Positions 5,646-64,000 of a DNA stretch of 64,000 bases are shown here, piece by piece. The translations under genes and the position numbers were made by a program. The DNA is from a virus. The stretch lies in UHGV virus genome UHGV-0125682. The stretch is one strand, 5' to 3'. Each line of letters begins with the position of its first letter. The first letter of the stretch is position 1. A model generated the notes under the pieces. That model did no database searches. It was given only the letters and a program-made list of their open reading frames with translations, and was not told the DNA's origin.

Positions 5646-7328
5646 ATGGCAACGAAAGACAAAAACAAAGGCTTTCTGTCGGCATTGAAGAAAGCCTTCA
5701 ACAGTGGCGATGTCACGCCTGCCGATCCGGTCGTTTTTACGAGCGGTCATAGTGTCGTTGCGCGTTCTGGTCTGTCCGCTTTACGTCCGGGGATACTGGG
5801 TGGCAATAGCGATGGCATGACAAGCGCGGCAGATACAGTATCAATTTCGGCAGAACTGCCCGGCGACCGCCTGCAAAAGTACAACATCCTGGAAACGATG
5901 GCTAAAAGCCCGACTATCTCGACGGCTTTAAATATTCACATTGCACATGCGCTTGCGCCTTCAAAAAAAACCGGACAAGCATTCATCCTTTCGCCAAAGG
6001 ATGGTTCCGATGCCGAGGCAGTAAGTAGATGTGAAGAGTTAACCGCTGATTTGGGGACGATGATTAATGACGGACTTCCTTCATGGGCCATGATTATGGC
6101 GATCTTTGGGGTGTCTTATGTCCGACCTTATGCTGAACAGGGCAGGGGGATAACAGGCATTGAGTCCAGTTATTACACTCTGCCACACTTCGTCCAGGAG
6201 TTTTATCGTGGTAGCCAGCTGGTAGGTTTCAGTGGTGATTACATTCTGGATACGCATAGTTTGCGCAGAGTAATAACCGAACCGTGGAATCTGGTTTCCA
6301 TGAAAAATCCCTATTGGACGCCACAGCATAAAGTTATTCCGGTTAGCTACGGCACAAAAGGGTACTCACTGTTAAGTGATCAGGCTGATAAGCCGTTAAT
6401 GGAGACGCAGAATTACGGAACTTCATTCCTGGAATACAGCTATGAACCTTACCTTAATTTATGTGCTTCGCTCGCCGCGCTGAAATCAACGCGAAATAAT
6501 GCAGCCAAAATTGACCGCCTGATTGCTCTTACGACGAACACACTGGACCCGGTTAATGCGGCGAACTATACGCGTGGCGTCAGCCAGGCATTGAAGCGTC
6601 ATAGTGACCTGGTGGCGCAAAGGTCGATTAATGCCAACGCTATTCCGACTGTGCTTAACCATCTGATACCTGTTATGGGAGACGGGAAGAACGGCATCAC
6701 CATTGATACGCAATCCATACCCGCAGATATCAGTGGTATCGAAGACGTTATGTTTCACCTCCGGCAGCTTGCTGCAAGCCTCGGCATTGACGCAACAATG
6801 CTTGGCTGGGCTGATCAGATGAGCGGAGGGCTTGGAGAAGGCGGCTGGCAGCAAACTGCTATCCAGGCTGCATTGCGTGCGAACTGGATCAGACAGGCCG
6901 CCCAGCGAACTATTTATCGGCTTCTGGACATTCACCTCGCTTATAAATACGGCAAGGTTTACACCGAAACAAACCGCCCTTATGACGTGCAATTCAACTC
7001 AATGAACACAGCTATCCAGGAAGAGGAAAACCGAGAACTGGATGCACGCGCCAACTTTGTTGCTGTCATCTCCCAAATTATGGACCAGATCCAGAACAAC
7101 CCGAAACTGGCTGGTAGTGACGCGTTTATGCGTTATCTGTTCACCGAGCAGTTGCACATCGACGATGACACTCTCAACACCATGATCAAAGAGTTTAAGG
7201 CGAATGAATCAGAGCAAAACAGCGAGCATGGTATGTACGAATCCGCGCCGTTGTCGTCCGGTGACGATCCGGAAAACTGGACGCCAGAACAGTTAATAAA
7301 CTTTGCAAAATTTGTGATGAGCAATTAA
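5646..7328 (+). CDS. putative head morphogenesis protein, portal-like by size and position
   Basis: 560-aa ORF followed by coiled-coil protein; assignment by synteny only. Confidence 0.35.
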   Translation: MATKDKNKGFLSALKKAFNSGDVTPADPVVFTSGHSVVARSGLSALRPGILGGNSDGMTSAADTVSISAELPGDRLQKYNILETMAKSPTISTALNIHIAHALAPSKKTGQAFILSPKDGSDAEAVSRCEELTADLGTMINDGLPSWAMIMAIFGVSYVRPYAEQGRGITGIESSYYTLPHFVQEFYRGSQLVGFSGDYILDTHSLRRVITEPWNLVSMKNPYWTPQHKVIPVSYGTKGYSLLSDQADKPLMETQNYGTSFLEYSYEPYLNLCASLAALKSTRNNAAKIDRLIALTTNTLDPVNAANYTRGVSQALKRHSDLVAQRSINANAIPTVLNHLIPVMGDGKNGITIDTQSIPADISGIEDVMFHLRQLAASLGIDATMLGWADQMSGGLGEGGWQQTAIQAALRANWIRQAAQRTIYRLLDIHLAYKYGKVYTETNRPYDVQFNSMNTAIQEEENRELDARANFVAVISQIMDQIQNNPKLAGSDAFMRYLFTEQLHIDDDTLNTMIKEFKANESEQNSEHGMYESAPLSSGDDPENWTPEQLINFAKFVMSN

Positions 7329-9641: not shown

Positions 9642-9670
9642 TTGATCTTCCATGTTTTCAGGCTTATATT
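9642..9670 (+). promoter_or_regulatory. sigma70-like promoter for immI-like module 1
   Basis: TTGATC, 17-nt spacer, TATATT, just downstream of operator. Confidence 0.45.
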
Positions 9671-9916
9671 CATGCCGTCGTAGCAAATTCTGCGACCGGG
9701 TTTGACAGCCTGAATACTTACGCGGACAACCGCACATTTCCGATATTGCGGTATTTTTGTGTCCGTAAAACCACGTTACGCCCGAATTATGGTGGGGCGT
9801 GATGGGGAGGCTTCGGCCTGCTGGTTTCGTAAGTGCCAGTCTGTCAACCCTGTCACGTCCTGCCACCTGTTTGACAGCGGGTCGCAGGTTGTTTATCAAC
9901 TTACGAGGCCGTAACT

Positions 9917-11713: not shown

Positions 11714-14700
11714 TTGGACAAATTACTTCATTCAATCAGTGAAGCCTCCAGCTTAGGCGAACTGATTGAAATTGTTAGTCGGTTGCATAAATTACGTGCT
11801 GTTGCGACCTTTGGCGTCAGGAAAGCCGATGGCGTCAGTATTCAGAAAACACGCCGTGCAGCAAACAATGCCGCAGTAAATCTTCTTAATTCCCTTCCGC
11901 CCGGCTTCGATGGGGCGAAATTAACTGACGAACAACGTCAGATTCTTGCTGGGTATACCGGTGAAGGCGGCCTGACAGATGGTGAGGGCAGCCAATACGA
12001 ATACTACACGCCACAGTTTATGGCTGAAGGTATATGGGATCTGTTTGCTGACTACGGTATTGATGGCGGGCACGTACTGGAACCATCAGCGGGCACAGGT
12101 ATTTTCCAGGAGACAAAACGGCAGGGCATGATAATGACCAGCGCCGAACTGTCTCCGATTTCTGGTCGAATAAACCAGCTTTTGCACCCGGAAGACGATG
12201 TGAATATCGGGGCGTTTGAGGCGCTGGCGGCGAAAGATGCAATGTATGACCACGCTGTTGGTAACGTACCGTTTGGTGAAGGGCGTTCCGGCGTTGCCGG
12301 GCTTGATCCGGCATATGCAAACGAGAAGAACGTTGGCAATTACTTTGTGCTGCGCACGATCGACAAGGTTAAGCCAGGTGGGCTTATCGTATTGGTGGTG
12401 CCGAATGGCATGACCGATGGTACGAAATATAAAAAATTGCGCGATAAAGTCAGCCGTAAAGCGGAATTTTTGGGCGCACATCGTATGCCTTCCGGTACGT
12501 TCAGCGAATCTGGAACAGATACCGTGGTGGACGTATGGGTATTGCGTAAACACCCGGAAACCTTCCTGGAGATGATCCCCGACACGGATGATGCAACGCT
12601 CAAATCGGCAAACGTCCTTTGGGATACCTTCCTCAAAGGGAAATGGTTTACAACCGATGGGAAGCGATTTGTTTACGGCGACATGGAACGTACCAGCTTC
12701 CGCAATACCCTGGTGGTGAAAAAAGACGGTCGTGTATCCAATGAGTCGATGAAAACCGCGCTATCTCGTCGCTTTGATAGTCGCATCAATTGGGATTTGC
12801 TCGGCGTAACTACTCAGGCATGGCAGGGCGCGAAAGTGGGCGATAAACGCCTTGTAGGCGGTATCTGGCATGAGTTTGATGGTCTGAAATGGGTTAAGGA
12901 CACGACAACCAAATCCTCCGCGCTTGATGTAAGTCGATATGGTGTTTCGACGTTTGGCGATCTGCAGATCGCGTTCCAGTCAACAAACGGGATTCTGGCT
13001 TTGTCATGGGACCAGATATCGGCGATCGCGTCCGACTATCCATCGGTTGTCAGTGATGAAGTGGCAGCAATGATTCGCTTTGCTGGCAAACAGCGAGAAA
13101 AAGACAGGGAGCGCGTTATGCGCGGTGCGTTGATAGGGCAGTTGATCAACAAGGCACTTGATTTGCGTAACCTGGGGGTGAACGTTGATGACAAACTGGC
13201 AGATGCATCCCGCCTGGCGGCAGCAGAAGTTGCGAAGTATGGACCACCGCACGCGATTAAGCTGAATGGGCTTGCTGAAGCTGGCGCTAAAAACTGGATG
13301 ACGTTCACTGGCAATGTGAAACAGGATGGTTCCACTTCTGACCTTCTGGCAGGGCGACTTGATGTAACGGATGGTGCTGCCGGTATTGACTTTACGCGTC
13401 CTGAACAAGTGATAGCACATCTTTTTAGTGATGTAGCCCTTAATCCTATAACGCTGGGCGACTTTCGTGAGGCGTTTGCTGGTGAACTGCCAGAGGACGA
13501 CGACGCGGTCCTTGAATACCTGGCGAAATTTGATGATATCGCTATTGATGGGTATGGCTGTCTGCTGCCGATGGACCGCGCCACCAGCGGCGATGTTGCA
13601 ACCAAAACAGCACTGCTGGTGGGCTGGCGTGATGCGTCAACAGGTGAGCAGAAAGCGAACTTTGAGCGTCAGTTGGCGAAAATCGAAGAGAAACGCATTT
13701 TCACGCCACTAAATAAAGTCACCGTTAATCTGAATGCCCGCTGGCTGGATCGCCGCTTGATAAAAGAGTTCCTGGCAGAGCAGGGCTATGACGAGTTTAA
13801 GTACACTGAACCTGATCTGAAGGTCGTCGATGGCATTCTGGTATCTCCGGACGATTACGAAGGTAAGGACGGGGTATTTACCGGCTATCAGCTACGAACC
13901 GTAAACGGCAAAAACGGGAATGAGTTCAAGAAGGCCAACAATAAAGACGGCTTCCTGAACCAGTTAGAAAACTACCTGAACGGTGTTAAACCGCGTGGGC
14001 AGAACGCTAACGAGTACCTGGATAAAATTGCTCAACTGGAAGTTAGTTTTAACGACTGGTTACGCACTCACCCGCAGGCTGATCAGATAGCCCGCGAGTA
14101 TAACGACGCATTCAATGGTTTCATTCCGTTCACGCATTCTGACGCACCGCTTGGCCTGGAAGGGCTTAGTGGAAAGCGCATTCCTCTTACTTATCAGAAT
14201 GAAGAAGTTCGGCGCTTGTCAGAAGATGGGCGCGGCATCATGGGATTTGGTACCGGGCTGGGTAAAACCACGACCGCGCTTGCGCTTGAGGCGTATAACT
14301 TCGAAACAGGTCGCACTAAACGCACGTGTATTGTTGTTCCGAAGGCGGTTTATCAGAACTGGTATCACGAGGCACAGAGTTTCTACAGTGCTGATGCCTT
14401 CGCCAATATGATGTTTATCGGTTTGGATGAAGTTCGTGATGACAGCGGAAATATTCTGACCGCGCCGGTGCTTGATGAAAATGGCGAACCACGCCTCGAC
14501 AGTAACGGGCAGCCTCTTACCAGAAATGTTGTGAAAGAGTCCGCCAGCGCCGTTATCGTTCAGCGTATGAACATGATCCCGTCGTCAAATTGGCGAACGG
14601 TCATCATGACAAAAGAACAATTCGCGTCTATCCCGCTACGAGAAAAAACCATCGAGGAGAACTCACAGCAAGCTGTCTTTAATGCTGTGGAAATGGGGCG

Positions 14701-17700
14701 TCTTGACCTGGCGTCCGGTAAACACCGTGATGCGCAGAAGAAGAACAAGATTAAGGATCAGGCCGCGAATACCGGTACAACGAAGAAGCAGAATATCCCG
14801 TACTTTGAGGATATGAACTTCGATAGCGTGATTGCCGACGAGGGGCATAATTACCGCAACTCCTTTAATGCCGGGCGTGAAGCGGGACAACTGGCATATT
14901 TGCCTAACCCGGCAGTATCCAAGATGGCCCGCGACATGGCTGTAAAAGCTGCGTACATGATGAAACGCAACAACGGGCGTGGTGTAGTCATGCTGACGGC
15001 AACTCCGCTGGTGAACAGTCCGATTGATGCCTTCAACATGCTGTCTACTGTCATTCCGCAGGAAGAGTGGATGCGCATGGGTATTGTTACGCCGGATGAT
15101 TTCGTTCGCGTGTTCGGCAAAACAGCCACAGTTCAGGTTCAGAAAATTTCCGGTGAGGTGGAAGAGAAGCAGGGGCTGGTGGGCTTCCAGAACCTTGATG
15201 GTCTGCGTGGTATTTTCCACCGTTGGACCACTCTGAAGACTGCCGCAGATGTCGGAGCGACGGTTAAAATTCCCGATATCATCGAGAACACCTTGCAGAT
15301 CCCGATGACAGGGGAGCAGGAGGCTGCTTATGAAGAGCTTCGTAAGCGTGCTCAGGAGTTAAGTCGCAATGATGAGCTGACAGTCGATGAAAACGGGCAT
15401 ATCACTAACGACAAACCGGATGATTTCATCTTCTCCATCATCCGCGACATGGATAAGGTTGCTATAGATCCGGATCTGTATGCCAGTGCGATTACATTCC
15501 AGTTCCCCGTTGAGCTTGCAGACAAGGTAAAAGCTATTGCTGATGCCCTGCCAAAAGTCGCAGGCGGTAAAGTGGCAGATGATGCAGACGAGGCCGAAGA
15601 AGACGGCGCTGGTGGACTGGTCAGTACGCGTACCAGCAAGGTAGTGAAGACCACCTTTAGTGAACATCCGGCGCATGTTGAAATACGCGCCAGCATTGAA
15701 CTGGAAGCTGAAATACTGAAGGCCATTGCTGCCGCCGGGATTGATCTGCAGCAGGTATCACACCCCATCCCACCGAAGTATGCCGCGCTGATCGAAAACC
15801 TTCGTGAAGGTCTGAAGAACGGTAAACAAATTGTCTTCATTGATGAAAAAGCCCAGCACCAGAAGCTGCGCCGTATTATCGCCAGTGCACTGCAAATGCC
15901 GGAGCAGGAGATAGGCATTATCAATGCGACGACCGTTAGCCAAGCTGGCGGCATCAAGCTGAAGAAGGTGAATAAACCGACTGAACCTACTCCGAATAAA
16001 AACGGTGAATACAAAGAAGGGGCATGGGAAACCTACTACAGCAAACTTGCCCAATATGAGGATTATCTCTCAGCTAAAAATGATGCTGGCCTTGAGGGCA
16101 TGGAAGGTATTGCCGCCGACTATAACGAAGGTCGCACGCGCATCATAATCTGTAACAAGAAGGCTGAAGTAGGTATTAACCTGCACATCGGGACAACCGA
16201 TATCCACCACCTGACACTACCCTGGACACCAGCCAGTATCGACCAACGAAATGGGCGCGGTGCGCGCGTAGGGTCACCGCAAGAGAAGGTCAATGTTCAC
16301 TACTATTGTGGCAAAGGCACATTCGATGACTTCCGTCTGGATACGCTTAAACGTAAGAAAGACTGGATCAAGATGGTGATGACCTCCGACATGTCAGAGA
16401 TCGCCAATGGTGATGCGGATGATGCTGATGAACGCGCCATTATGCTGGCGGCAAACCCGGAAGAACGCCGCGCAATCATGGCTCGCCAGGCGCAAGAGCG
16501 TGAAGAACGTCTGAAACTGAAAGCACAGCGCGAGGCCAACAATGCTCTCGATATCTACCTGAAAGCGGCAAACGCCGCCGGAAAAGATATCGGCATGATG
16601 GAGACAGAACTGAAAAGCGCGATGGAACAGATAGAGTATTACCAGCGAAATCTTGACGACCTGATAAAAGCGGGTACGAACAGGAATGGGCAAAAATACG
16701 CGCTTGAGCAGTTGAGTAGCTACAGAAAACGTGCGCGGGTGCTGCGGTTTGCGATCACCAGGGCAAAAGACGCGGATACCATAATGAAACGCTCTCGTGG
16801 TGATGTGGAGCGCGCTATTAAGTCTGGTGTGCTGGATATCAGTATCGATGTTATTCAGAACCCACAGGAATATATGCGCACTGACAAGAATATCCTGTTG
16901 CATAAAGGTAGTTATTACCGTGCAGTCATTGATGATCGCGAAACAACAGCGATTGTCCGGGTGGAAAAAATTGACGGTGAAAAAGCACAATACCTCTGCC
17001 GTATCGCCTGGCTGGATAGAGCAAGTCGTTACGCTCGAGCACCGGGGTCAATCGTTACATTGCCGTTTGACTCTGTGATTGAAGCGGTAACTTTTGAAGA
17101 GGGGGTAGCTGAATCGCGCGCAACGGCTGCGCGAGGTGTTCAGTGCCACCAGCTATCAACAATACTTACTCGCGATCAGTTCTATGATGCTATTCGCAAT
17201 GGGGTAATGAATGTTATTGCTGGTAAACCTGGTAATGCATGGGGCGGTGGGTCAGCTATTAAATACTGGGCATATCGCACAGATGATGGTCAGATCGCGC
17301 TGTCATCGGCCTATGATGGCGTGATAGGCCAAAAAATCGGGCGAGCATCGGATATAGCACCTGAGCGATGGATATATCCTGATGGCAACGACGAGGCGCT
17401 GAAGCGTGAAGTGGCAAAAATACAAGCCAGTGATAACCCGCTGAATATCGTGGACGGCGAGGGATTCCTCCAGGCATTGTATGGGTATGATTACACCCAG
17501 GGAATGCAGGCATGGGGCGCACAGGCAACGATGGATGATGTTGCCCATGAGTTCGAAAACTGGATGGCTGGGCGTGGTCTGTCAGGTCGTTCGCTTAATA
17601 AAGTCACTTCTGAAGATATTCTTAGCTTGTTCCGCAAACCGTCCGGAGAAGGTCTGGAATCATTCTGGAGGACCGTGCTGGCATACCGTTTATTCCAGGG

Positions 17701-18550
17701 CAGGATGAAAGCCTTTAGCAATATCGATGATATTGAACGGATGTTTAATCAGGTCAAGATCGCGAAAATTAAGGCGAAGATCGAAAAAACACGTTCTGCG
17801 CTGGTGGCCTGGCGCGATGCATTGTTTGAGCAATATAAATCACTCAGTGATGCAGATGGATGGGCGGCATTGGAACAGCTGGCGAATAATGGGGTAGATG
17901 GAGCGAAACTCGCCATTGTTCAGGCTGATAACCCCCTGGAATCACCGGCAGCACAGTGGATTAAGGTGGGGGCTGTCATCAATGCATTTGATGAAAAACA
18001 CATTAGTAAGGACGATTTTGCTGATGCTGTTTCTGTTAATCGCCTGGTAGAAATGGCTACCCGCCGCGCCCGTGAGTTGAAAGACGGCGACTATGTGAAT
18101 GAGTTGCCGGATACGCTCAAATCGGCAACGTGGCAGGACTATGTATCGCTGAAAAACGGCGGGGCCACTGAATCAGAGATCGCGGAAAGGCTTGAGCAGG
18201 CTGAAAGCAAAAGAGAAGAGCAGGCGGCAGTGGCTGAAGCCAGAGCTGATGAAGCGGCGAATGATGACTATATCATTGTGGTTAATGATAAGCCGATTCG
18301 CGCTAAGGCGCGTGTTCGCGGGCGCTGGTGGAGCGTCAGCGAGGACGTTGGCGCGGTTTATCTCATTGCCGACCAACCAGGTTCCTCGACAATACGGAAC
18401 GCCAAAGACGCGATTAAGAAGATTGGCGGACGTTTCTGGAATTTTGAAGCAAACCCGGTTGCTGATGTGAACTTTGACCGTCCTGCATGGATGGTATCTA
18501 CGCGTTACTCGGTAGATGAACTGCGTAAAATAATCGCCGATGCGGCCTAA
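11714..18550 (+). CDS. darB: DarB-like antirestriction protein: N6-adenine methyltransferase fused to DExH helicase
   Basis: 2278 aa; AdoMet motif EPSAGTGIF, NVPF catalytic motif, Walker A GFGTGLGKTT around aa 842, DEGH motif around aa 1040. Confidence 0.8.
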   Translation: MDKLLHSISEASSLGELIEIVSRLHKLRAVATFGVRKADGVSIQKTRRAANNAAVNLLNSLPPGFDGAKLTDEQRQILAGYTGEGGLTDGEGSQYEYYTPQFMAEGIWDLFADYGIDGGHVLEPSAGTGIFQETKRQGMIMTSAELSPISGRINQLLHPEDDVNIGAFEALAAKDAMYDHAVGNVPFGEGRSGVAGLDPAYANEKNVGNYFVLRTIDKVKPGGLIVLVVPNGMTDGTKYKKLRDKVSRKAEFLGAHRMPSGTFSESGTDTVVDVWVLRKHPETFLEMIPDTDDATLKSANVLWDTFLKGKWFTTDGKRFVYGDMERTSFRNTLVVKKDGRVSNESMKTALSRRFDSRINWDLLGVTTQAWQGAKVGDKRLVGGIWHEFDGLKWVKDTTTKSSALDVSRYGVSTFGDLQIAFQSTNGILALSWDQISAIASDYPSVVSDEVAAMIRFAGKQREKDRERVMRGALIGQLINKALDLRNLGVNVDDKLADASRLAAAEVAKYGPPHAIKLNGLAEAGAKNWMTFTGNVKQDGSTSDLLAGRLDVTDGAAGIDFTRPEQVIAHLFSDVALNPITLGDFREAFAGELPEDDDAVLEYLAKFDDIAIDGYGCLLPMDRATSGDVATKTALLVGWRDASTGEQKANFERQLAKIEEKRIFTPLNKVTVNLNARWLDRRLIKEFLAEQGYDEFKYTEPDLKVVDGILVSPDDYEGKDGVFTGYQLRTVNGKNGNEFKKANNKDGFLNQLENYLNGVKPRGQNANEYLDKIAQLEVSFNDWLRTHPQADQIAREYNDAFNGFIPFTHSDAPLGLEGLSGKRIPLTYQNEEVRRLSEDGRGIMGFGTGLGKTTTALALEAYNFETGRTKRTCIVVPKAVYQNWYHEAQSFYSADAFANMMFIGLDEVRDDSGNILTAPVLDENGEPRLDSNGQPLTRNVVKESASAVIVQRMNMIPSSNWRTVIMTKEQFASIPLREKTIEENSQQAVFNAVEMGRLDLASGKHRDAQKKNKIKDQAANTGTTKKQNIPYFEDMNFDSVIADEGHNYRNSFNAGREAGQLAYLPNPAVSKMARDMAVKAAYMMKRNNGRGVVMLTATPLVNSPIDAFNMLSTVIPQEEWMRMGIVTPDDFVRVFGKTATVQVQKISGEVEEKQGLVGFQNLDGLRGIFHRWTTLKTAADVGATVKIPDIIENTLQIPMTGEQEAAYEELRKRAQELSRNDELTVDENGHITNDKPDDFIFSIIRDMDKVAIDPDLYASAITFQFPVELADKVKAIADALPKVAGGKVADDADEAEEDGAGGLVSTRTSKVVKTTFSEHPAHVEIRASIELEAEILKAIAAAGIDLQQVSHPIPPKYAALIENLREGLKNGKQIVFIDEKAQHQKLRRIIASALQMPEQEIGIINATTVSQAGGIKLKKVNKPTEPTPNKNGEYKEGAWETYYSKLAQYEDYLSAKNDAGLEGMEGIAADYNEGRTRIIICNKKAEVGINLHIGTTDIHHLTLPWTPASIDQRNGRGARVGSPQEKVNVHYYCGKGTFDDFRLDTLKRKKDWIKMVMTSDMSEIANGDADDADERAIMLAANPEERRAIMARQAQEREERLKLKAQREANNALDIYLKAANAAGKDIGMMETELKSAMEQIEYYQRNLDDLIKAGTNRNGQKYALEQLSSYRKRARVLRFAITRAKDADTIMKRSRGDVERAIKSGVLDISIDVIQNPQEYMRTDKNILLHKGSYYRAVIDDRETTAIVRVEKIDGEKAQYLCRIAWLDRASRYARAPGSIVTLPFDSVIEAVTFEEGVAESRATAARGVQCHQLSTILTRDQFYDAIRNGVMNVIAGKPGNAWGGGSAIKYWAYRTDDGQIALSSAYDGVIGQKIGRASDIAPERWIYPDGNDEALKREVAKIQASDNPLNIVDGEGFLQALYGYDYTQGMQAWGAQATMDDVAHEFENWMAGRGLSGRSLNKVTSEDILSLFRKPSGEGLESFWRTVLAYRLFQGRMKAFSNIDDIERMFNQVKIAKIKAKIEKTRSALVAWRDALFEQYKSLSDADGWAALEQLANNGVDGAKLAIVQADNPLESPAAQWIKVGAVINAFDEKHISKDDFADAVSVNRLVEMATRRARELKDGDYVNELPDTLKSATWQDYVSLKNGGATESEIAERLEQAESKREEQAAVAEARADEAANDDYIIVVNDKPIRAKARVRGRWWSVSEDVGAVYLIADQPGSSTIRNAKDAIKKIGGRFWNFEANPVADVNFDRPAWMVSTRYSVDELRKIIADAA

Positions 18551-22982: not shown

Positions 22983-23059
22983 GATGGTGTAGCTCAGTAG
23001 GATAGAGCAGCAGCCTTCTAAGCTGTCGGTCGGTGGTTCGAATCCACCCACCATCGCCA
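22983..23059 (+). tRNA. tRNA-Arg (anticodon UCU)
   Basis: Manual cloverleaf fold: 7-bp acceptor GATGGTG/CACCATC, TTCGAAT T-loop, anticodon loop CTTCTAA, encoded CCA. Confidence 0.85.
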
Positions 23060-23061
23060 AT

Positions 23062-23137
23062 GCCGGTTTAGCTCAGTTGGTAGAGCGCCTGCCTTGTAAG
23101 CAGGATGTCAGCGGTTCGAGTCCGTTAACCGGCACCA
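23062..23137 (+). tRNA. tRNA-Thr (anticodon UGU)
   Basis: Manual fold: acceptor GCCGGTT/AACCGGC, anticodon loop CTTGTAA, T-arm AGCGG-TTCGAGT-CCGTT, CCA. Confidence 0.85.
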
Positions 23138-24974: not shown

Positions 24975-25050
24975 GGCCCTTTAGCTCAGTGGTTAGAGCT
25001 GGCGACTCATAATCGCACGGTCACCGGTTCAAGTCCGGTAGGGGCCACCA
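24975..25050 (+). tRNA. tRNA-Met or tRNA-Ile2 (anticodon CAU)
   Basis: Manual fold: acceptor GGCCCTT/AGGGGCC, anticodon loop CTCATAA, T-arm ACCGG-TTCAAGT-CCGGT, CCA. Confidence 0.8.
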
Positions 25051-39843: not shown

Positions 39844-40205
39844 ATCACTCTCCTTTAGTGCGCAAATGGTTTTTCCAGCGGTTTTGCGCCGCGCTGGGCT
39901 TTTTGCAAAAACCACAATCCATCATCCCGTAATATTTCATCAACCCCATCCGTCGGTTGCTGAGTCTCACCCACTGCCAGACGCCAGGAGCGTTTCTACG
40001 AACTAACAGAATCTTTGCTTTACGGTTTTTCATCGCTTTGCTCTCCTGCGTCTCTTTGCTGCTCGTCGTGCCGCTGCAATACCGGTATGGCGGCGCTTTG
40101 GTGCCGGGATGATGTTGTCAGCCATCAGGACATACGGCTTTGCAATTAGCGCAGAAGCCCAAAAACGAGTCGGGTACGGTAACAAGCCGATACATGCCAC
40201 ACGCA

Positions 40206-50003: not shown

Positions 50004-50315
50004 AACACTGACTGTTGCGCCCTGGCATTATCGTGGGGTATATTTCTACGGCACCTTAGAAAAACGGGTGCCGGGATTGGAACCCCGGATAATGCAAAAG
50101 GCGACACAGACGCCGAAAGCGTCTTTTTTTGTGTCATGCCATCGCACAGCCATACGTAGCGTTTAGCTCAGAGATCAATGGTAGTGCTGGCTGGGCTGCC
50201 GAAAGGCAGGCCGGTTCCCTTTTGCGCCGGTAGTTCCAACCCAGTCAGTGCTACCGCCATTGAGATTGGAACCTCACGCGGTAGCTCCTTAAATTAGCAA
50301 AAGGAGGCTGCCAAT

Positions 50316-56442: not shown

Positions 56443-56802
56443 TTAAACACCAACCAGACTTTCCAGTGGAATACCAAACTGGGCATGTAAACGACGAATC
56501 ATAGGTAACGTCAAATTTCGTGTCCCATTAAGCACTTCGTAAACACGGTTTGACTTACCAATTGCCGGTTCCAGATCCTTCACGGTCAGCCCTTGCTGTT
56601 CCATACGGAATTTAATGGCCTCAATAGGTGATGGTGGCTCAATTGGGTAATGTTTTTTCTCGTACTCCTCAATGAGAAGACACATGACCTCAAAGAAATC
56701 ACCTTCCGGGGTGTTCATTTCCGGTTCGTTATCGAACATCGGTTCGACCGCACGCAGTGCGGCCTCATAATCTTGTTCTGTACGGATAGGTTTAATGTTC
56801 AT
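56443..56802 (-). CDS. higA: HigA-like antitoxin (HTH)
   Basis: C-terminal HTH (GLTVKDLEPAIGKSNRVYEVLNG); downstream of HigB-like toxin. Confidence 0.75.
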   Translation of the reverse strand: MNIKPIRTEQDYEAALRAVEPMFDNEPEMNTPEGDFFEVMCLLIEEYEKKHYPIEPPSPIEAIKFRMEQQGLTVKDLEPAIGKSNRVYEVLNGTRNLTLPMIRRLHAQFGIPLESLVGV

Positions 56803-56805
56803 GAT

Positions 56806-57108
56806 TTACTCCAGTTCTATTGTATCCGCTTCAATGGCATCGTATTCCTTATGTGTTCCAATAAACTTAACGAACATCCATCCTCGCTGATAAGCAATTG
56901 CGACAATTAACCTGTAATCATTTCCCTTAATATTGAACACCACGCGCCTGTTTTTAAGGATGCTGGCTGTCCGGTACTGTTCTTTGATCTCAGCCGGATT
57001 TTTCCAGTCAGCCTTTGTTGCTTCATCAACCCATGCCTTTAATGGCTGTTCTGCATCGGGATTCTTCGCCCAGAAATCCCTTAGTGTTTTTACCGAAATT
57101 ATTTTCAT
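56806..57108 (-). CDS. higB: HigB-like toxin (RelE/ParE superfamily)
   Basis: FNIKGNDYRLIVAIAY...IGTHKEYD matches HigB family; start reassigned to MKIIS with AAGGAA RBS. Confidence 0.75.
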   Translation of the reverse strand: MKIISVKTLRDFWAKNPDAEQPLKAWVDEATKADWKNPAEIKEQYRTASILKNRRVVFNIKGNDYRLIVAIAYQRGWMFVKFIGTHKEYDAIEADTIELE

Positions 57109-57253
57109 CACAGATTCCTTCTCTCTGAAAGCAGAGTAGTCCCAATATGGGACAATGTAAAGCACTTTAGTCCCATGCTGGGATATGAATTGAAATCACA
57201 ATCTCCAGACAATGCACCCTCGATACCTGATAAATCGACCTTTGAGGATGCTT

Positions 57254-60502: not shown

Positions 60503-61408
60503 ATGAGATCAGTCGCTTTCAAAAATATCTTCATCTATCGTCTTTCACGCGAAGTTAGCTGGGATACTGCAGAAGTAAATGCAGCCCTTAGCAAGTTTGT
60601 GTTTACCCCATGCGGTTCTCAGGATATGACTAAAGCTGGTTGGACCCCCGTTCTTGGTGACAACCTCACCCATGAATACCAGGGTTTTCTTCTGATACAG
60701 CATAAACGAGAGGAAAAAATCCTACCTTCTCAAGTGCTCAAAGAAGAGTTACAGAAAAAAATCCTGACACTTGAAGAAGAGCAAGACAGAAAGCTGAAGA
60801 AGACCGAAAAAGATTCGCTGAAGGATGAAGTGCTTCACTCTCTTCTTCCTCGTGCTTTCACGAGAAAATCAGTCGCTAAAATCCTGATAGACCGAAGCAA
60901 TCATCTGGTTTTTGTCGAGGCCAGCAGTGCTAAAAAAGCAGAGGATCAGCTGGCTTTGTTACGGAAATCGCTTGGCAGCTTGCCAGTGGTCCCCTTCTCT
61001 CCGAAAGACCCATTAGAACTGACCATCACTGGCTGGATTAAAAATGGCTTCCCGAACGGTTTCCGTGCCGGTGAGGAAGCGACTTTAAAAGCATTGCTTG
61101 ATGATGGCGGCGCGGTCCGCTGCAAAAAAGTGGACCTGCTATCCGACGAGATAATGAGTCATATAGAAGCTGGTAAGGTTGCAACCACAGTTGCGGTCAA
61201 CTGGCAAGACCGTGCATTTTTCAGACTGAATGACGATATGAGTATCAAGGCTTTGTCGTTCAGCGACGAATTGTACGACCAGAACGACGGTATTGATCGA
61301 GAGGATGTTGCGCAACGATTTGACGCTGACTTTATCCTATTTACTGCTGAATTATCAGCGATGTTCACCTCGCTAGTGGAGGCCGTTGGTGGTGAAGCAG
61401 AACGTTAA
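60503..61408 (+). CDS. rdgC: RdgC-like recombination-associated protein
   Basis: Closely resembles bacterial RdgC as I recall it ([70 protein letters not shown]). Confidence 0.85.
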
Positions 61409-63680
61409 CCTTCGATATGGTTCAGTTTGCAGTGGAATTGAAGCCGCGAGCATTGCCTGGGAACCGTTGGGTATGCGTCCGGCGTGGTTTGCTGAAATTG
61501 AGCCTTTTCCATCTGCCGTTCTTGCGCACCGCTGGCCTCATGTCGCCAACCTTGGCGATATGACAAAACTTGCCAAAAAAGTCCTGGCTGGGGAAATCGA
61601 ATCCCCTGATGTGCTCGTCGGGGGAACACCTTGTCAGGCATTCAGTATCGCGGGATTACGTGGTGGGCTTGATGATGAGCGCGGCGCGCTAACTTTGAAG
61701 TATGTGGAGCTTGCAAATGCAATTGACGACAAACGGTCTGAGTCCTTCCTCAAACCGACAGTTATCGTCTGGGAAAATGTCCCAGGAGTCCTGTCATCGG
61801 CAGATAACGCCTTCGGATGTTTCCTTGCCGGATTGGCTGGAGAAGATGCACCATTTGAACCAGGTGATCGACCTGAATCAGGAAAAAGTAACGCGTTCTG
61901 GCGGTGGGATGGCAAAACCGGTTGCCATGCTCCAAAGTGGCCGCAGTGTGGTTGTATTTATGGACCGCAGCGAAAGGTGGCCTGGAGAATACTTGATGCC
62001 CAATACTTCGGAGTGGCACAACGACGCCGACGCGTGTTTGTTGTCGCAAGTGCTCGAACAGACCTCGATCCCGCAACGGTACTTTTTGAGTTCGAAGGCG
62101 TGCGCCGGGATATTGCGCCGAGCCGAAAAAAGAAGGAAATCGCTTCCGCCATTATTGCAAATGGCGCTGCAATCAGTGGCGAAAGCCTAAATCCATGCCT
62201 ACACGCTGACATTCCACCCGGTATGAAATCGACGAAAGCCGTAAACGCTTTCAGGATGGCAGCATTTGGGGAATATATTGACGATGAAACCGCATCGACA
62301 GTAAAGGCAAGAGATTTTAAAGATGCCACTGACCTTGCCGTTTTTAGCAGCACAGGAGCAGGTTTTTGGTCAGAAGGGCATGGTACATTGCGGGCACGTG
62401 AGCAAGAAAGCCATGAGCATCTTGTTACATTGGCTTTTCCTGAGCGTATGAGCGGTACACAACATGCTGCAACTAAGAATACTTCACCATCTCTAATGGC
62501 TAAAAATCCAACAGCTGTTTGCTATGAAGTAAGAAACGCAGAAGTAGCTGTCCGCCGTCTTACCCCTGTCGAATGTGAAAGGCTGCAAGGTTTTCCTGAT
62601 GGGCATACGTTGATCCCGACGGAAAAGCGTAAAAAAGTTAATTCAGATGAACTGGCATATCTTCGCAATCACTATCCAGATTTAAGCGAAGAAGAGGCCG
62701 CGATGCTTGCAGCTGACGGACCGCGTTACAAAGCGATCGGCAACAGCATGGCAGTTCCTGTTATGCAATGGATAGGGTGTCGCATTCTTGCGACCGTAGC
62801 GGATAAACAGCAAAAAACAATAAATACCATTACCTACACAAGAAAACTCCGGACTCCGGATGAATATGAACGCCCAATATTCAAATGGGTAGGCGGTAAA
62901 TTCTCAGAGTTGCCTACAGTGCTTGAGCATCTACCACACGGCAAGCGGTTAATAGAACCATTCGTTGGTGGCGGTTCCGTATTTACGAATGCAGGATTTC
63001 GCCACAACCTGCTTAATGATATTAACGGTGACCTGATTAACTTCTATCAGACATTGCAGCGAGAAGGACATTCGCTCGTCACGCTGTCATATAGTTTTTT
63101 CCAAAATTACAACAACGCTGACGCTTACCTCGAAGTGCGTGAGGCATTTAACAGAGGAAAGTATGACCAGCTACATCATGCTGCCGCCTTTTTGTACCTT
63201 AATCGGCACTGTTTTAATGGCGTAACGCGGTACAACCAAAATGGCGAGTTCAACGTGGGGTATGGCAAATACAAAGCGCCCTACTTCCCACATGCAGAGA
63301 TGGAGGCATTTTTGGCTGATGACGTACTCAAAAACACGTCCTTTGTATCAGGTGACTTTGCTGGCGTCATCGAGGCGGCTGGTGAAGGCGATGTGATTTT
63401 TTGCGATCCGCCGTATGAACCGCTGCCGGATACAGAAGGGTTTACCAGTTATTCAGGAAATAGCTTCCGTTTCGACGAACAGAAACGGCTGGTATCTCTA
63501 TTGGTGGAAGCCCACCAGCGCGGCGCTAAGGTAGTGATAACAAATAGTGGTGCGCCAAACATCCGTGAACTATATGAAGGAAACGGGTTTAAAGTACATC
63601 ATATGGCAGCCAGACGGTCGGTGTCCTGCAAGGCGTCAACACGTGTAGTTGCTAACGATATAATTGCAATAATGAAGTAA
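61389..63680 (+). CDS. dmt: Dmt-like bifunctional DNA methyltransferase (C5-cytosine N-terminal, Dam-like N6-adenine C-terminal)
   Basis: PCQ motif GGTPCQAFS and ENV motif; C-terminal KWVGGK and DPPY; GTG start after GGAGG RBS, overlapping rdgC end. Confidence 0.85.
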
Positions 63681-63682
63681 AA

Positions 63683-63712
63683 AACGCCGCAGTAGCGGCG
63701 TTTACTTTTTTA
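63683..63712. terminator. bidirectional intrinsic terminator at phage/host junction
   Basis: acgccgcagtagcggcgt hairpin plus T-rich run. Confidence 0.7.
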
Positions 63713-63728
63713 TGTGGCGAAATACCTA

Positions 63729-64000
63729 TTAACCTAACTTCGCCCAGGTATCACGCAGCCCAACGGTGCGGTTAAATACCGGTTTTTCCGCCGTAGAATG
63801 GCGGCTGTCGAGGCAGAAATAACCTTCACGCTCAAACTGGAATGCTTTACCCGCTACCGCTTCTTTCAGCGACGGTTCAGCAAAACCCTGTTTGATCACC
63901 AGCGATTCCGGGTTAATCACCGACAGGAAATCATCCGCAGCACCTGGGTTCGGCACGCTGAACAGACGATCGTACAGGCGGATTTCAACCGGCAGCGCAT
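63729..64000 (-). CDS. glnS: glutaminyl-tRNA synthetase 3' end (partial, continues past window)
   Basis: C-terminal translation ...[35 protein letters not shown] matches GlnRS as I recall it; frame open to window end. Confidence 0.7.

Follow-up and report, generated by a model that had tools for sequence, protein, structure and literature searches.

The window, i.e., the entire 64,000-nucleotide stretch of viral DNA analyzed here, is very probably a section of a D6-like (P1/D6-group) phage-plasmid, and the glnS gene into which its right edge runs very probably belongs to this element as a captured cassette of Escherichia type, that is, as a moron. This reading removes a false lead, in that the housekeeping gene beside the phage genes is known cargo of a known phage-plasmid family and does not mark an integration site; members of this family have been found in E. 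coli and Shigella as well as in invasive lineages of Salmonella.

The assignment of the window is based on similarity, gene order, and gene content. Phage D6 (91,159 bp) matched 68% of window positions 40000 to 64000 with an identity of 95.6%, and positions 1 to 25000 matched E. coli plasmids of approximately 90 to 96 kb with a coverage of up to 95% and an identity of 98.5%. On the circular plasmid NZ_CP117014.1 (approximately 96 kb), the two window ends map approximately 65 kb apart on the same strand, i.e., the whole window is collinear with this plasmid; the D6-like phage-plasmids collinear with the window are approximately 90 to 97 kb in size. Besides the C4 antisense RNAs and the c4 target element listed in Table 1, isrK and three tRNAs were detected with Rfam. 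C4 RNAs are typical of P1-type immunity, and the RNA set fits a P1/D6-group phage-plasmid. Genes for portal, head, and tail proteins are annotated in the plasmids matching the window, and the properties by which a D6-like element was recognized, namely, similarity and gene order together with P1-type immunity elements and morphogenesis genes, were found. Partition genes are located beyond the end of the window; in relatives, ParM and ParA-like genes follow glnS, the junction being situated on a plasmid record in 75 of 75 E. coli cases.

Table 1. Features of the window, with positions given for the whole 64,000-nucleotide stretch
Feature	Position (nt)	Strand	Source or remark
c4-a1b1 (c4 target element)	9664-9716		Rfam
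C4 antisense RNA	9785-9870		Rfam
C4 antisense RNA	50174-50261		Rfam
higB (toxin-antitoxin)	56806-57165		Domain search of the window
Dmt-like bifunctional DNA methyltransferase	61386-63680	+	ORF of 764 aa from the first TTG
Bidirectional intrinsic-terminator hairpin, AAACGCCGC-AGTA-GCGGCGTTT	63682-63703	Both	Terminator scan and folding
glnS 3' end (glutamine--tRNA ligase)	63729-64000	-	Stop codon at 63729-63731 and last 89 sense codons

The right edge of the window comprises two convergent genes, which correspond to D6 orf63 (dmt) and orf62 (glnS). The end of a Dmt-like gene at position 63680, as given in the preliminary description, was confirmed by the coordinates and by the presence of both methylase domains: according to Pfam, the N-terminal half is a C5-cytosine methylase (PF00145 at residues 12 to 140) and the C-terminal half a Dam-type D12 N6-adenine methylase (PF02086 at residues 501 to 745). 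The window gene is 87% identical to P1 dmt at the nucleotide level, and its AR_0119 homologue is annotated in RefSeq with 718 aa. The spacer between dmt and glnS (63681 to 63728) has 48 nt, which agrees with the earlier statement that glnS begins 49 bp after the end of dmt. The single hairpin reported to lie in it was likewise found; it starts 2 nt past the dmt stop codon and consists of 9 pairs (6 of them G-C) closing a loop of 4 nt, flanked by an A-run and, at the opposite end, by a T-run. The terminator scan scored it as terminator-like on both strands, with folding energies of -15.3 kcal/mol for the plus strand and -17.6 kcal/mol for the minus strand (z = -3.6). The recognition of a glnS-like 3' end also held, as the minus strand of positions 63729 to 63998 provides an open translation of 89 residues without an internal stop, which matches PF20974, the anticodon-binding domain of class I Glu/Gln tRNA synthetases, with an E value of 2.5e-20. 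The gene runs past the window end, and the identical plasmid allele has 1,662 nt including the stop codon, encoding 553 aa. Two sequence features expected of a glutamine--tRNA ligase (GlnRS) were found, the C-terminal anticodon-binding domain in the window and the catalytic motifs, HIGH and VMSKR (KMSKS-type), in the full-length relatives, i.e., the D6 and AR_0119 alleles.

For the location of the junction, a 671-nt segment (63330 to 64000) was compared with 5,426 complete E. coli genomes under an E-value cutoff so strict that a match had to span the junction to be retained. Matches were obtained in 75 records, all of them plasmids and none a chromosome; four of these plasmids were 100% identical to the window over the 671 nt, and at the sequence level such a match is far beyond chance. 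RefSeq labels the gene as "glnS: glutamine--tRNA ligase" in the 75 junction-bearing plasmids, and PLSDB contains 98 plasmids having the cassette with both flanks, mostly from Escherichia and some from Salmonella and Shigella. Phage D6 exhibits the same arrangement: orf62, annotated as "glutaminyl-tRNA synthetase, similar to E. coli GlnS," has orf63 (dmt) on one side and orf61, a ParA-like gene, and StbA/ParM-type partition genes on the other, and this gene order is also annotated in AR_0119 unitig_3 and pEP91B-2. The visible part of glnS is itself of plasmid type. Over its 272 nt it matches the alleles of pEP91B-2 and AR_0119 perfectly, versus 3 to 10 mismatches in 260 nt to chromosomal alleles, the 89 residues are identical to those of the two plasmid alleles, and the translation ends with the plasmid-specific C terminus KLG*.

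These results do not support the suggestion in the preliminary description of an element integrated into or linked with the chromosome, given that 75 of 75 junction records are plasmids, that D6 has the same arrangement, and that the glnS 3' end is of plasmid type. What a chromosomally integrated prophage adjoining glnS should display was not observed: no chromosomal place was found for the junction among the 75 records bearing it, and in relatives glnS is followed by orf61 and partition genes. The integration proposal had been made with the proviso that the glnS-like sequence should not prove to be a phage-encoded synthetase, and the gene is indeed a synthetase encoded by the phage-plasmid. 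Of the four possibilities raised (chromosomal integration, a cointegrate, phage capture of host DNA, and an assembly join), capture is the only one that fits the evidence. In the passage of PMC6799933 dealing with this gene, which cites Gilcrease and Casjens 2018, glnS is reported for phage D6 and "all D6-like genomes" and is regarded as a moron; because it had already been published, the junction can no longer be called unexpected.

The window holds the 3' 272 nt of glnS, and the promoter, the catalytic domain, and the plasmid genes on the far side were read from near-identical relatives. There, the cassette is bordered by orf61, a gene on the partition side, and by the 3' end of dmt. Homology to the K-12 chromosome starts approximately 75 to 87 nt upstream of the ATG and extends to the stop-codon region, and it includes the glnS promoter (TTGTCA-17-GATCAT, approximately 40 nt upstream of the ATG) and the Shine-Dalgarno region. 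The 3' end reads AAG TTA GGT TAA (...WAKLG*) in plasmids versus AAA GTA GGC GAG TAA (...WAKVGE*) in chromosomes. A hairpin of the form ACGCCGC...GCGGCGT(T)n follows chromosomal glnS at +13 to +28 in Citrobacter, Salmonella, Enterobacter, Kluyvera, Trabulsiella, Atlantibacter, and Pseudescherichia; in E. ruysiae and in three of four E. coli chromosomes it is displaced by REP-like elements to +62 to +200, the fourth, GMF065, having a variant stem outside the exact hairpin pattern. Since the same hairpin follows chromosomal glnS across genera, the "shared" hairpin of the window is, as judged by this comparison, the native glnS terminator that was brought along with the gene, and not phage sequence. 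The cassette in the relatives is therefore a complete transcription unit of approximately 1.8 kb, which comprises the native promoter of glnS, the 553-aa ORF, and the native terminator and ends a few bases from the dmt stop codon, where this terminator probably now doubles as the one facing dmt.

An empty site was present in the diverged D6-like plasmid NZ_CP104667.1 (flanks 72 to 78% identical), in which orf61 and the 3' end of dam are separated by only approximately 125 bp containing a different hairpin. The hallmarks of a moron, i.e., its own promoter and terminator and an empty site in a relative, were thus found. Inspection by eye revealed no target-site duplication, IS element, or recombinase next to the cassette, so that illegitimate recombination is retained as the mode of capture. 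The most plausible course of events is that a single-gene cassette was copied once from an Escherichia-type chromosome into an ancestor of the D6 lineage.

All 12 distinct alleles examined from plasmids and viral contigs encode 553 aa, end with KLG*, possess the same 3' junction, and are free of frameshifts and stops; they differ from one another in up to 36 nucleotides (up to 2.2%) versus at most three amino acids. The common length, C terminus, and 3' junction of these alleles argue for a single origin of plasmid glnS by one capture. Among the matches listed, the plasmid allele is 96.4 to 97.7% identical to E. coli chromosomal copies, approximately 95% identical to E. ruysiae, and 85 to 88% identical to other genera. 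As to the donor, the assignment stops at an Escherichia-type source not represented among the sampled E. coli alleles, E. ruysiae being the Escherichia species compared besides E. coli, with E. albertii, E. fergusonii, and E. marmotae left out of the comparison. The first approximately 660 nt of plasmid glnS have a signature that was absent from all chromosomes compared, and a 300-nt probe from this 5' part detected 65 plasmids and no chromosome at an identity of at least 97.3%.

The plasmid alleles are of mosaic structure. The glnS gene of D6, which was sequenced from a lysogen of E. coli C600 (PMC6799933), changes from plasmid type to chromosome type (K-12/FORC044-like) at approximately nt 1071: 28 of 31 informative sites are of plasmid type before this point, and 19 of 22 are of chromosome type after it (Fisher P = 1.5e-8, uncorrected for breakpoint scanning). 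Conversely, in the allele of IMG/VR contig L096 it is the 5' part (the first approximately 660 nt) that is chromosome-like. Because of the mosaic structure of these two alleles, the process is, as far as can be read from them, gene conversion from chromosomal glnS to the plasmid copy, and it took place more than once. With an identity of 96 to 98% to the host gene, the cassette also recombines with host glnS, and chromosomal tracts have in this way entered some plasmid alleles. Together with the extent of the cassette and the unoccupied site, these conversion tracts explain the tendency of short-read assemblies of D6-like plasmids to break inside this gene. One further sequence, pSa1423-90k (NZ_MK356557.1), was set aside; gene and flanks matched at approximately 90%, no intact GlnS reading frame was found in it, and the uniform 90% over gene and flanks suggests low sequence quality.

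Intactness, the small number of amino acid changes, dN/dS, the catalytic motifs, and the presence of promoter and terminator together point to an expressed and active GlnRS. The 272-nt 3' end of the pEP91B-2 allele is identical to the window, and its product differs from that of AR_0119 in a single residue, at position 106. The dN/dS values of 0.02 to 0.04, obtained also between plasmid alleles, say less about selection acting on plasmid glnS than they seem to, as the divergence partly predates capture and conversion imports sequence that has already been purified, and repeated conversion from the chromosomal gene, itself under selection, could also hold them down; the values for plasmid versus chromosome, which mostly reflect pre-capture divergence and conversion imports, were dropped as main evidence of function. 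A lysogen would transcribe glnS, as a moron, from the gene's own sigma-70 promoter, and an active plasmid GlnRS would add to the host enzyme and not replace it. A full-length glnS copy is kept in 5,425 of 5,426 E. coli genomes, with 5,428 chromosomal places counted; at the DNA level, plasmid glnS is therefore an addition to the host gene and no replacement of it, and strain LD93-1 is an example in which both chromosomal and plasmid glnS are present. In Salmonella hosts, the plasmid encodes an enzyme of Escherichia type, and the cassette is 98.6 to 99.6% identical to the E. coli plasmid version, the identity of Salmonella chromosomal glnS being approximately 85%. The best reading of these sequence data is a moron that would supply extra GlnRS. 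No experimental follow-up on the function of D6-like glnS was found in the literature searched; Silva et al. 2019 proposed a role in host fitness or plasmid maintenance by analogy with cysS of pBT1 (PMC6799933). The defined extent of the cassette, together with the empty site and the tracts of conversion, offers clean starting points for functional experiments on this gene.

Three more specific views of the role of the gene were considered. It is unlikely that the D6-family GlnRS acts as a maintenance or counterattack device, for instance through takeover of the host function in the manner of pBT1 CysRS or by buffering the lysogen or the lytically infected cell against insults to Gln-tRNA charging, and that its near-identity to the host gene serves as a recombination portal as well. 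If so, approximately 1.7 kb of near-identity would constitute a standing portal linking phage-plasmid and host, through which gene conversion and, occasionally, reversible integration or mobilization of the chromosome could take place. Quite unlikely is an addiction-like maintenance device in the strict sense, in which the plasmid GlnRS would take over from the chromosomal enzyme, as proposed for the CysRS of pBT1, and thereby make plasmid loss costly. Silva 2019 (PMC6799933) and Canals 2019 (PMC6785131) drew the parallel to pBT1 cysS, the cassette adjoins partition genes, and another enterobacterial plasmid carries cysS and glnS beside a higBA module; however, full-length chromosomal glnS is retained in all but one of the 5,426 genomes, carriers included, and D6-like elements already possess toxin-antitoxin modules (higB in the window; phd-doc and higAB according to PMC6799933).

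It is decidedly unlikely that glnS is a hitchhiking passenger without a selected plasmid function, kept intact solely by recent origin and gene conversion. While the chromosomal conversion tracts in D6 (from approximately nt 1071) and L096 (first approximately 660 nt) would accord with such a passenger, as does the lack of a reported phenotype for D6-like glnS in the literature searched, practically every close D6-like plasmid from E. coli, Shigella, and Salmonella carries the cassette. Moreover, despite nucleotide divergence of up to 2.2%, the 12 alleles have accumulated no frameshift or stop and no more than three amino acid changes, and conversion cannot easily maintain the plasmid copy in Salmonella, where chromosomal glnS is only approximately 85% identical.

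The recombination between the two glnS copies also bears on the placement of the element. A Campbell-type homologous recombination between plasmid and chromosomal glnS, with the crossover beyond the window end, could have integrated or cointegrated the element, for which the cassette provides approximately 1.7 kb at 96 to 98% identity to the chromosomal gene; the mosaic alleles demonstrate that the two copies did recombine, and the window ends at position 64000, inside glnS. Such an event is nevertheless highly improbable for the window, considering that chromosomes account for 0 of the 75 junction-bearing records from the 5,426 complete E. coli genomes, that the plasmid-specific 5' signature occurred on 65 plasmids and zero chromosomes, and that the visible 272 nt of glnS are purely of plasmid type. 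The probability that the junction is an assembly artefact joining a plasmid contig to chromosomal glnS is negligible: 9 of 24 IMG/VR contigs carrying glnS break off inside the gene, and assemblers thus do struggle with the plasmid/chromosome repeat, but phage D6, 75 complete E. coli plasmids, and nine IMG/VR contigs have a join identical to that at 63681 to 63728, and the plasmid-type stop-codon region and the terminator without REP elements are unlike those of any E. coli chromosome examined. The assembly join envisaged in the preliminary description is very unlikely, given that this join is found again in numerous complete assemblies made independently.

The presence of glnS in a D6-like phage-plasmid is an already-known feature, to which the present analysis makes modest additions: it defines the cassette limits exactly, traces the hairpin to the native terminator of glnS, and adds an empty site and conversion tracts. 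In a set of 50,697 phage records, the only named, cultured phage with a complete near-host GlnRS is D6; every other complete phage GlnRS match has an identity of at most 57% and stems from a metagenomic or unnamed record. D6 orf62 and D6-like plasmid prophages such as pYU39_89 share the gene, its neighbors, the 3' junction, and the KLG* end with the window and its relatives. The window junction is 98.7% identical to that of D6 and 100% identical to that of pEP91B-2. Differences from D6 concern both genes: the 3' part of D6 glnS is of chromosome type, with 9 mismatches in 272 nt, whereas the 3' end in the window is of the common plasmid type, and the window dmt has a P1-like C5-methylase module at its N terminus, which is missing in D6. 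Phage P1 (Punavirus) resembles the window in its bifunctional Dmt (87% identical), its plasmid-prophage lifestyle, and its C4 immunity RNA, but most of its genome has only a distant relationship to that of D6, and no P1-named record is among the 27 phage records matching GlnS.

Plasmid-borne synthetases are known more widely (PMC6785131). The CysRS of pBT1 from Salmonella Typhimurium ST313 D23580 is likewise a paralogue of an aminoacyl-tRNA synthetase of essential function on an enterobacterial plasmid; a function in fitness or maintenance was proposed for it, and both expression takeover and enzyme kinetics were measured (Canals et al. 2019, PMC6785131). It differs from the D6 GlnRS in amino acid and plasmid type. 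A conjugative plasmid of Citrobacter carries cysS and glnS beside higBA. An Enterobacter ludwigii "plasmid" with an Enterobacter-type glnS beside an SNF2 gene was considered as a second phage-plasmid capture and rejected, as it is ICE-like (type IVb pilus, TraJ, integrases). A chromosomal counterpart, glnS of E. coli K-12 (b0680), has 96 to 97% nucleotide identity with the plasmid gene from approximately position -75 to the stop codon and shares with it the promoter, the Shine-Dalgarno sequence, and the HIGH and VMSKR motifs, with three to seven amino acid differences over the first 550 codons. The K-12 gene differs in being located between nagE and chiP, in ending with VGE*, and in having REP elements between stop codon and terminator.

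The plasmid-borne glnS alleles are mosaics that include chromosome-type tracts, located at nucleotides ~1071 to 1650 of the gene in phage D6 and at nucleotides 1 to 660 in the IMG/VR viral contig L096, which indicates gene conversion of the plasmid alleles by the host glnS copy. In a search of 5,426 E. coli genomes, the 5′ signature of the plasmid glnS was present on 65 plasmids and on none of the chromosomes. Nine of the 24 IMG/VR viral contigs with the gene (L101 and L108 to L115) start or end inside glnS; these ends are probably assembly breaks at a repeat common to the plasmid and chromosomal copies.

According to PMC6799933, glnS is carried by all D6-like genomes. The diverged D6-like plasmid NZ_CP104667.1, which has the site without glnS (positions 6141 to 6265), narrows this statement. 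For NZ_AP027414.1, NZ_CP056699.1 (E. marmotae), and NZ_AP027678.1, the probe match was limited to the flank on the side of the partition-side gene orf61. No tRNA-Gln gene was among the tRNA genes found within the 64-kb window, and GlnS is therefore without a phage-borne cognate tRNA there. The C4 antisense RNAs form two separate loci, and thus two immI-like regions seem to be present in the element.

Features of the window outside the dmt-glnS region
Feature	Position	Strand	Remark
c4-a1b1 target element	9664-9716		accompanies first C4 locus
C4 antisense RNA	9785-9870		first locus
2,278-aa ORF	11714-18550		N6-methylase, SNF2, and helicase-C domains
Three tRNA genes, Arg(TCT), Thr(TGT), Met(CAT)	22983-23137 and 24975-25050
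isrK	50051-50129		accompanies second C4 locus
C4 antisense RNA	50174-50261		second locus
HTH protein	56443-56802	minus	adjoins HigB-type toxin
HigB-type toxin	56806-57165	minus

Between positions 40000 and 47650, Stx-converting phages and phage vB_EcoM-Ro157c2YLVW share short patches with the window at 92 to 98% identity, which indicates exchange with lambdoid prophages. The patches take in pphA and ead/Ea22-like genes.

The N-terminal (C5-methylase) module of dmt (61408 to 62850) is exchangeable. Its stretch from 61416 to 62773 is 98.2% identical to P1 (AF234173.1), whereas plasmid AR_0119 has the window's module only in part, with a homology break between 62126 and 62535, and phage D6 and plasmid pEP91B-2 lack the P1-like module and feature other sequence in its place. 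The HTH protein is probably the antitoxin of the adjoining HigB-type toxin; the Citrobacter cronae conjugative plasmid NZ_CP060445.1 carries a module with 73% DNA identity to that of the window, adjoining cysS and glnS. Finally, the 2,278-aa ORF resembles DarB of P1.
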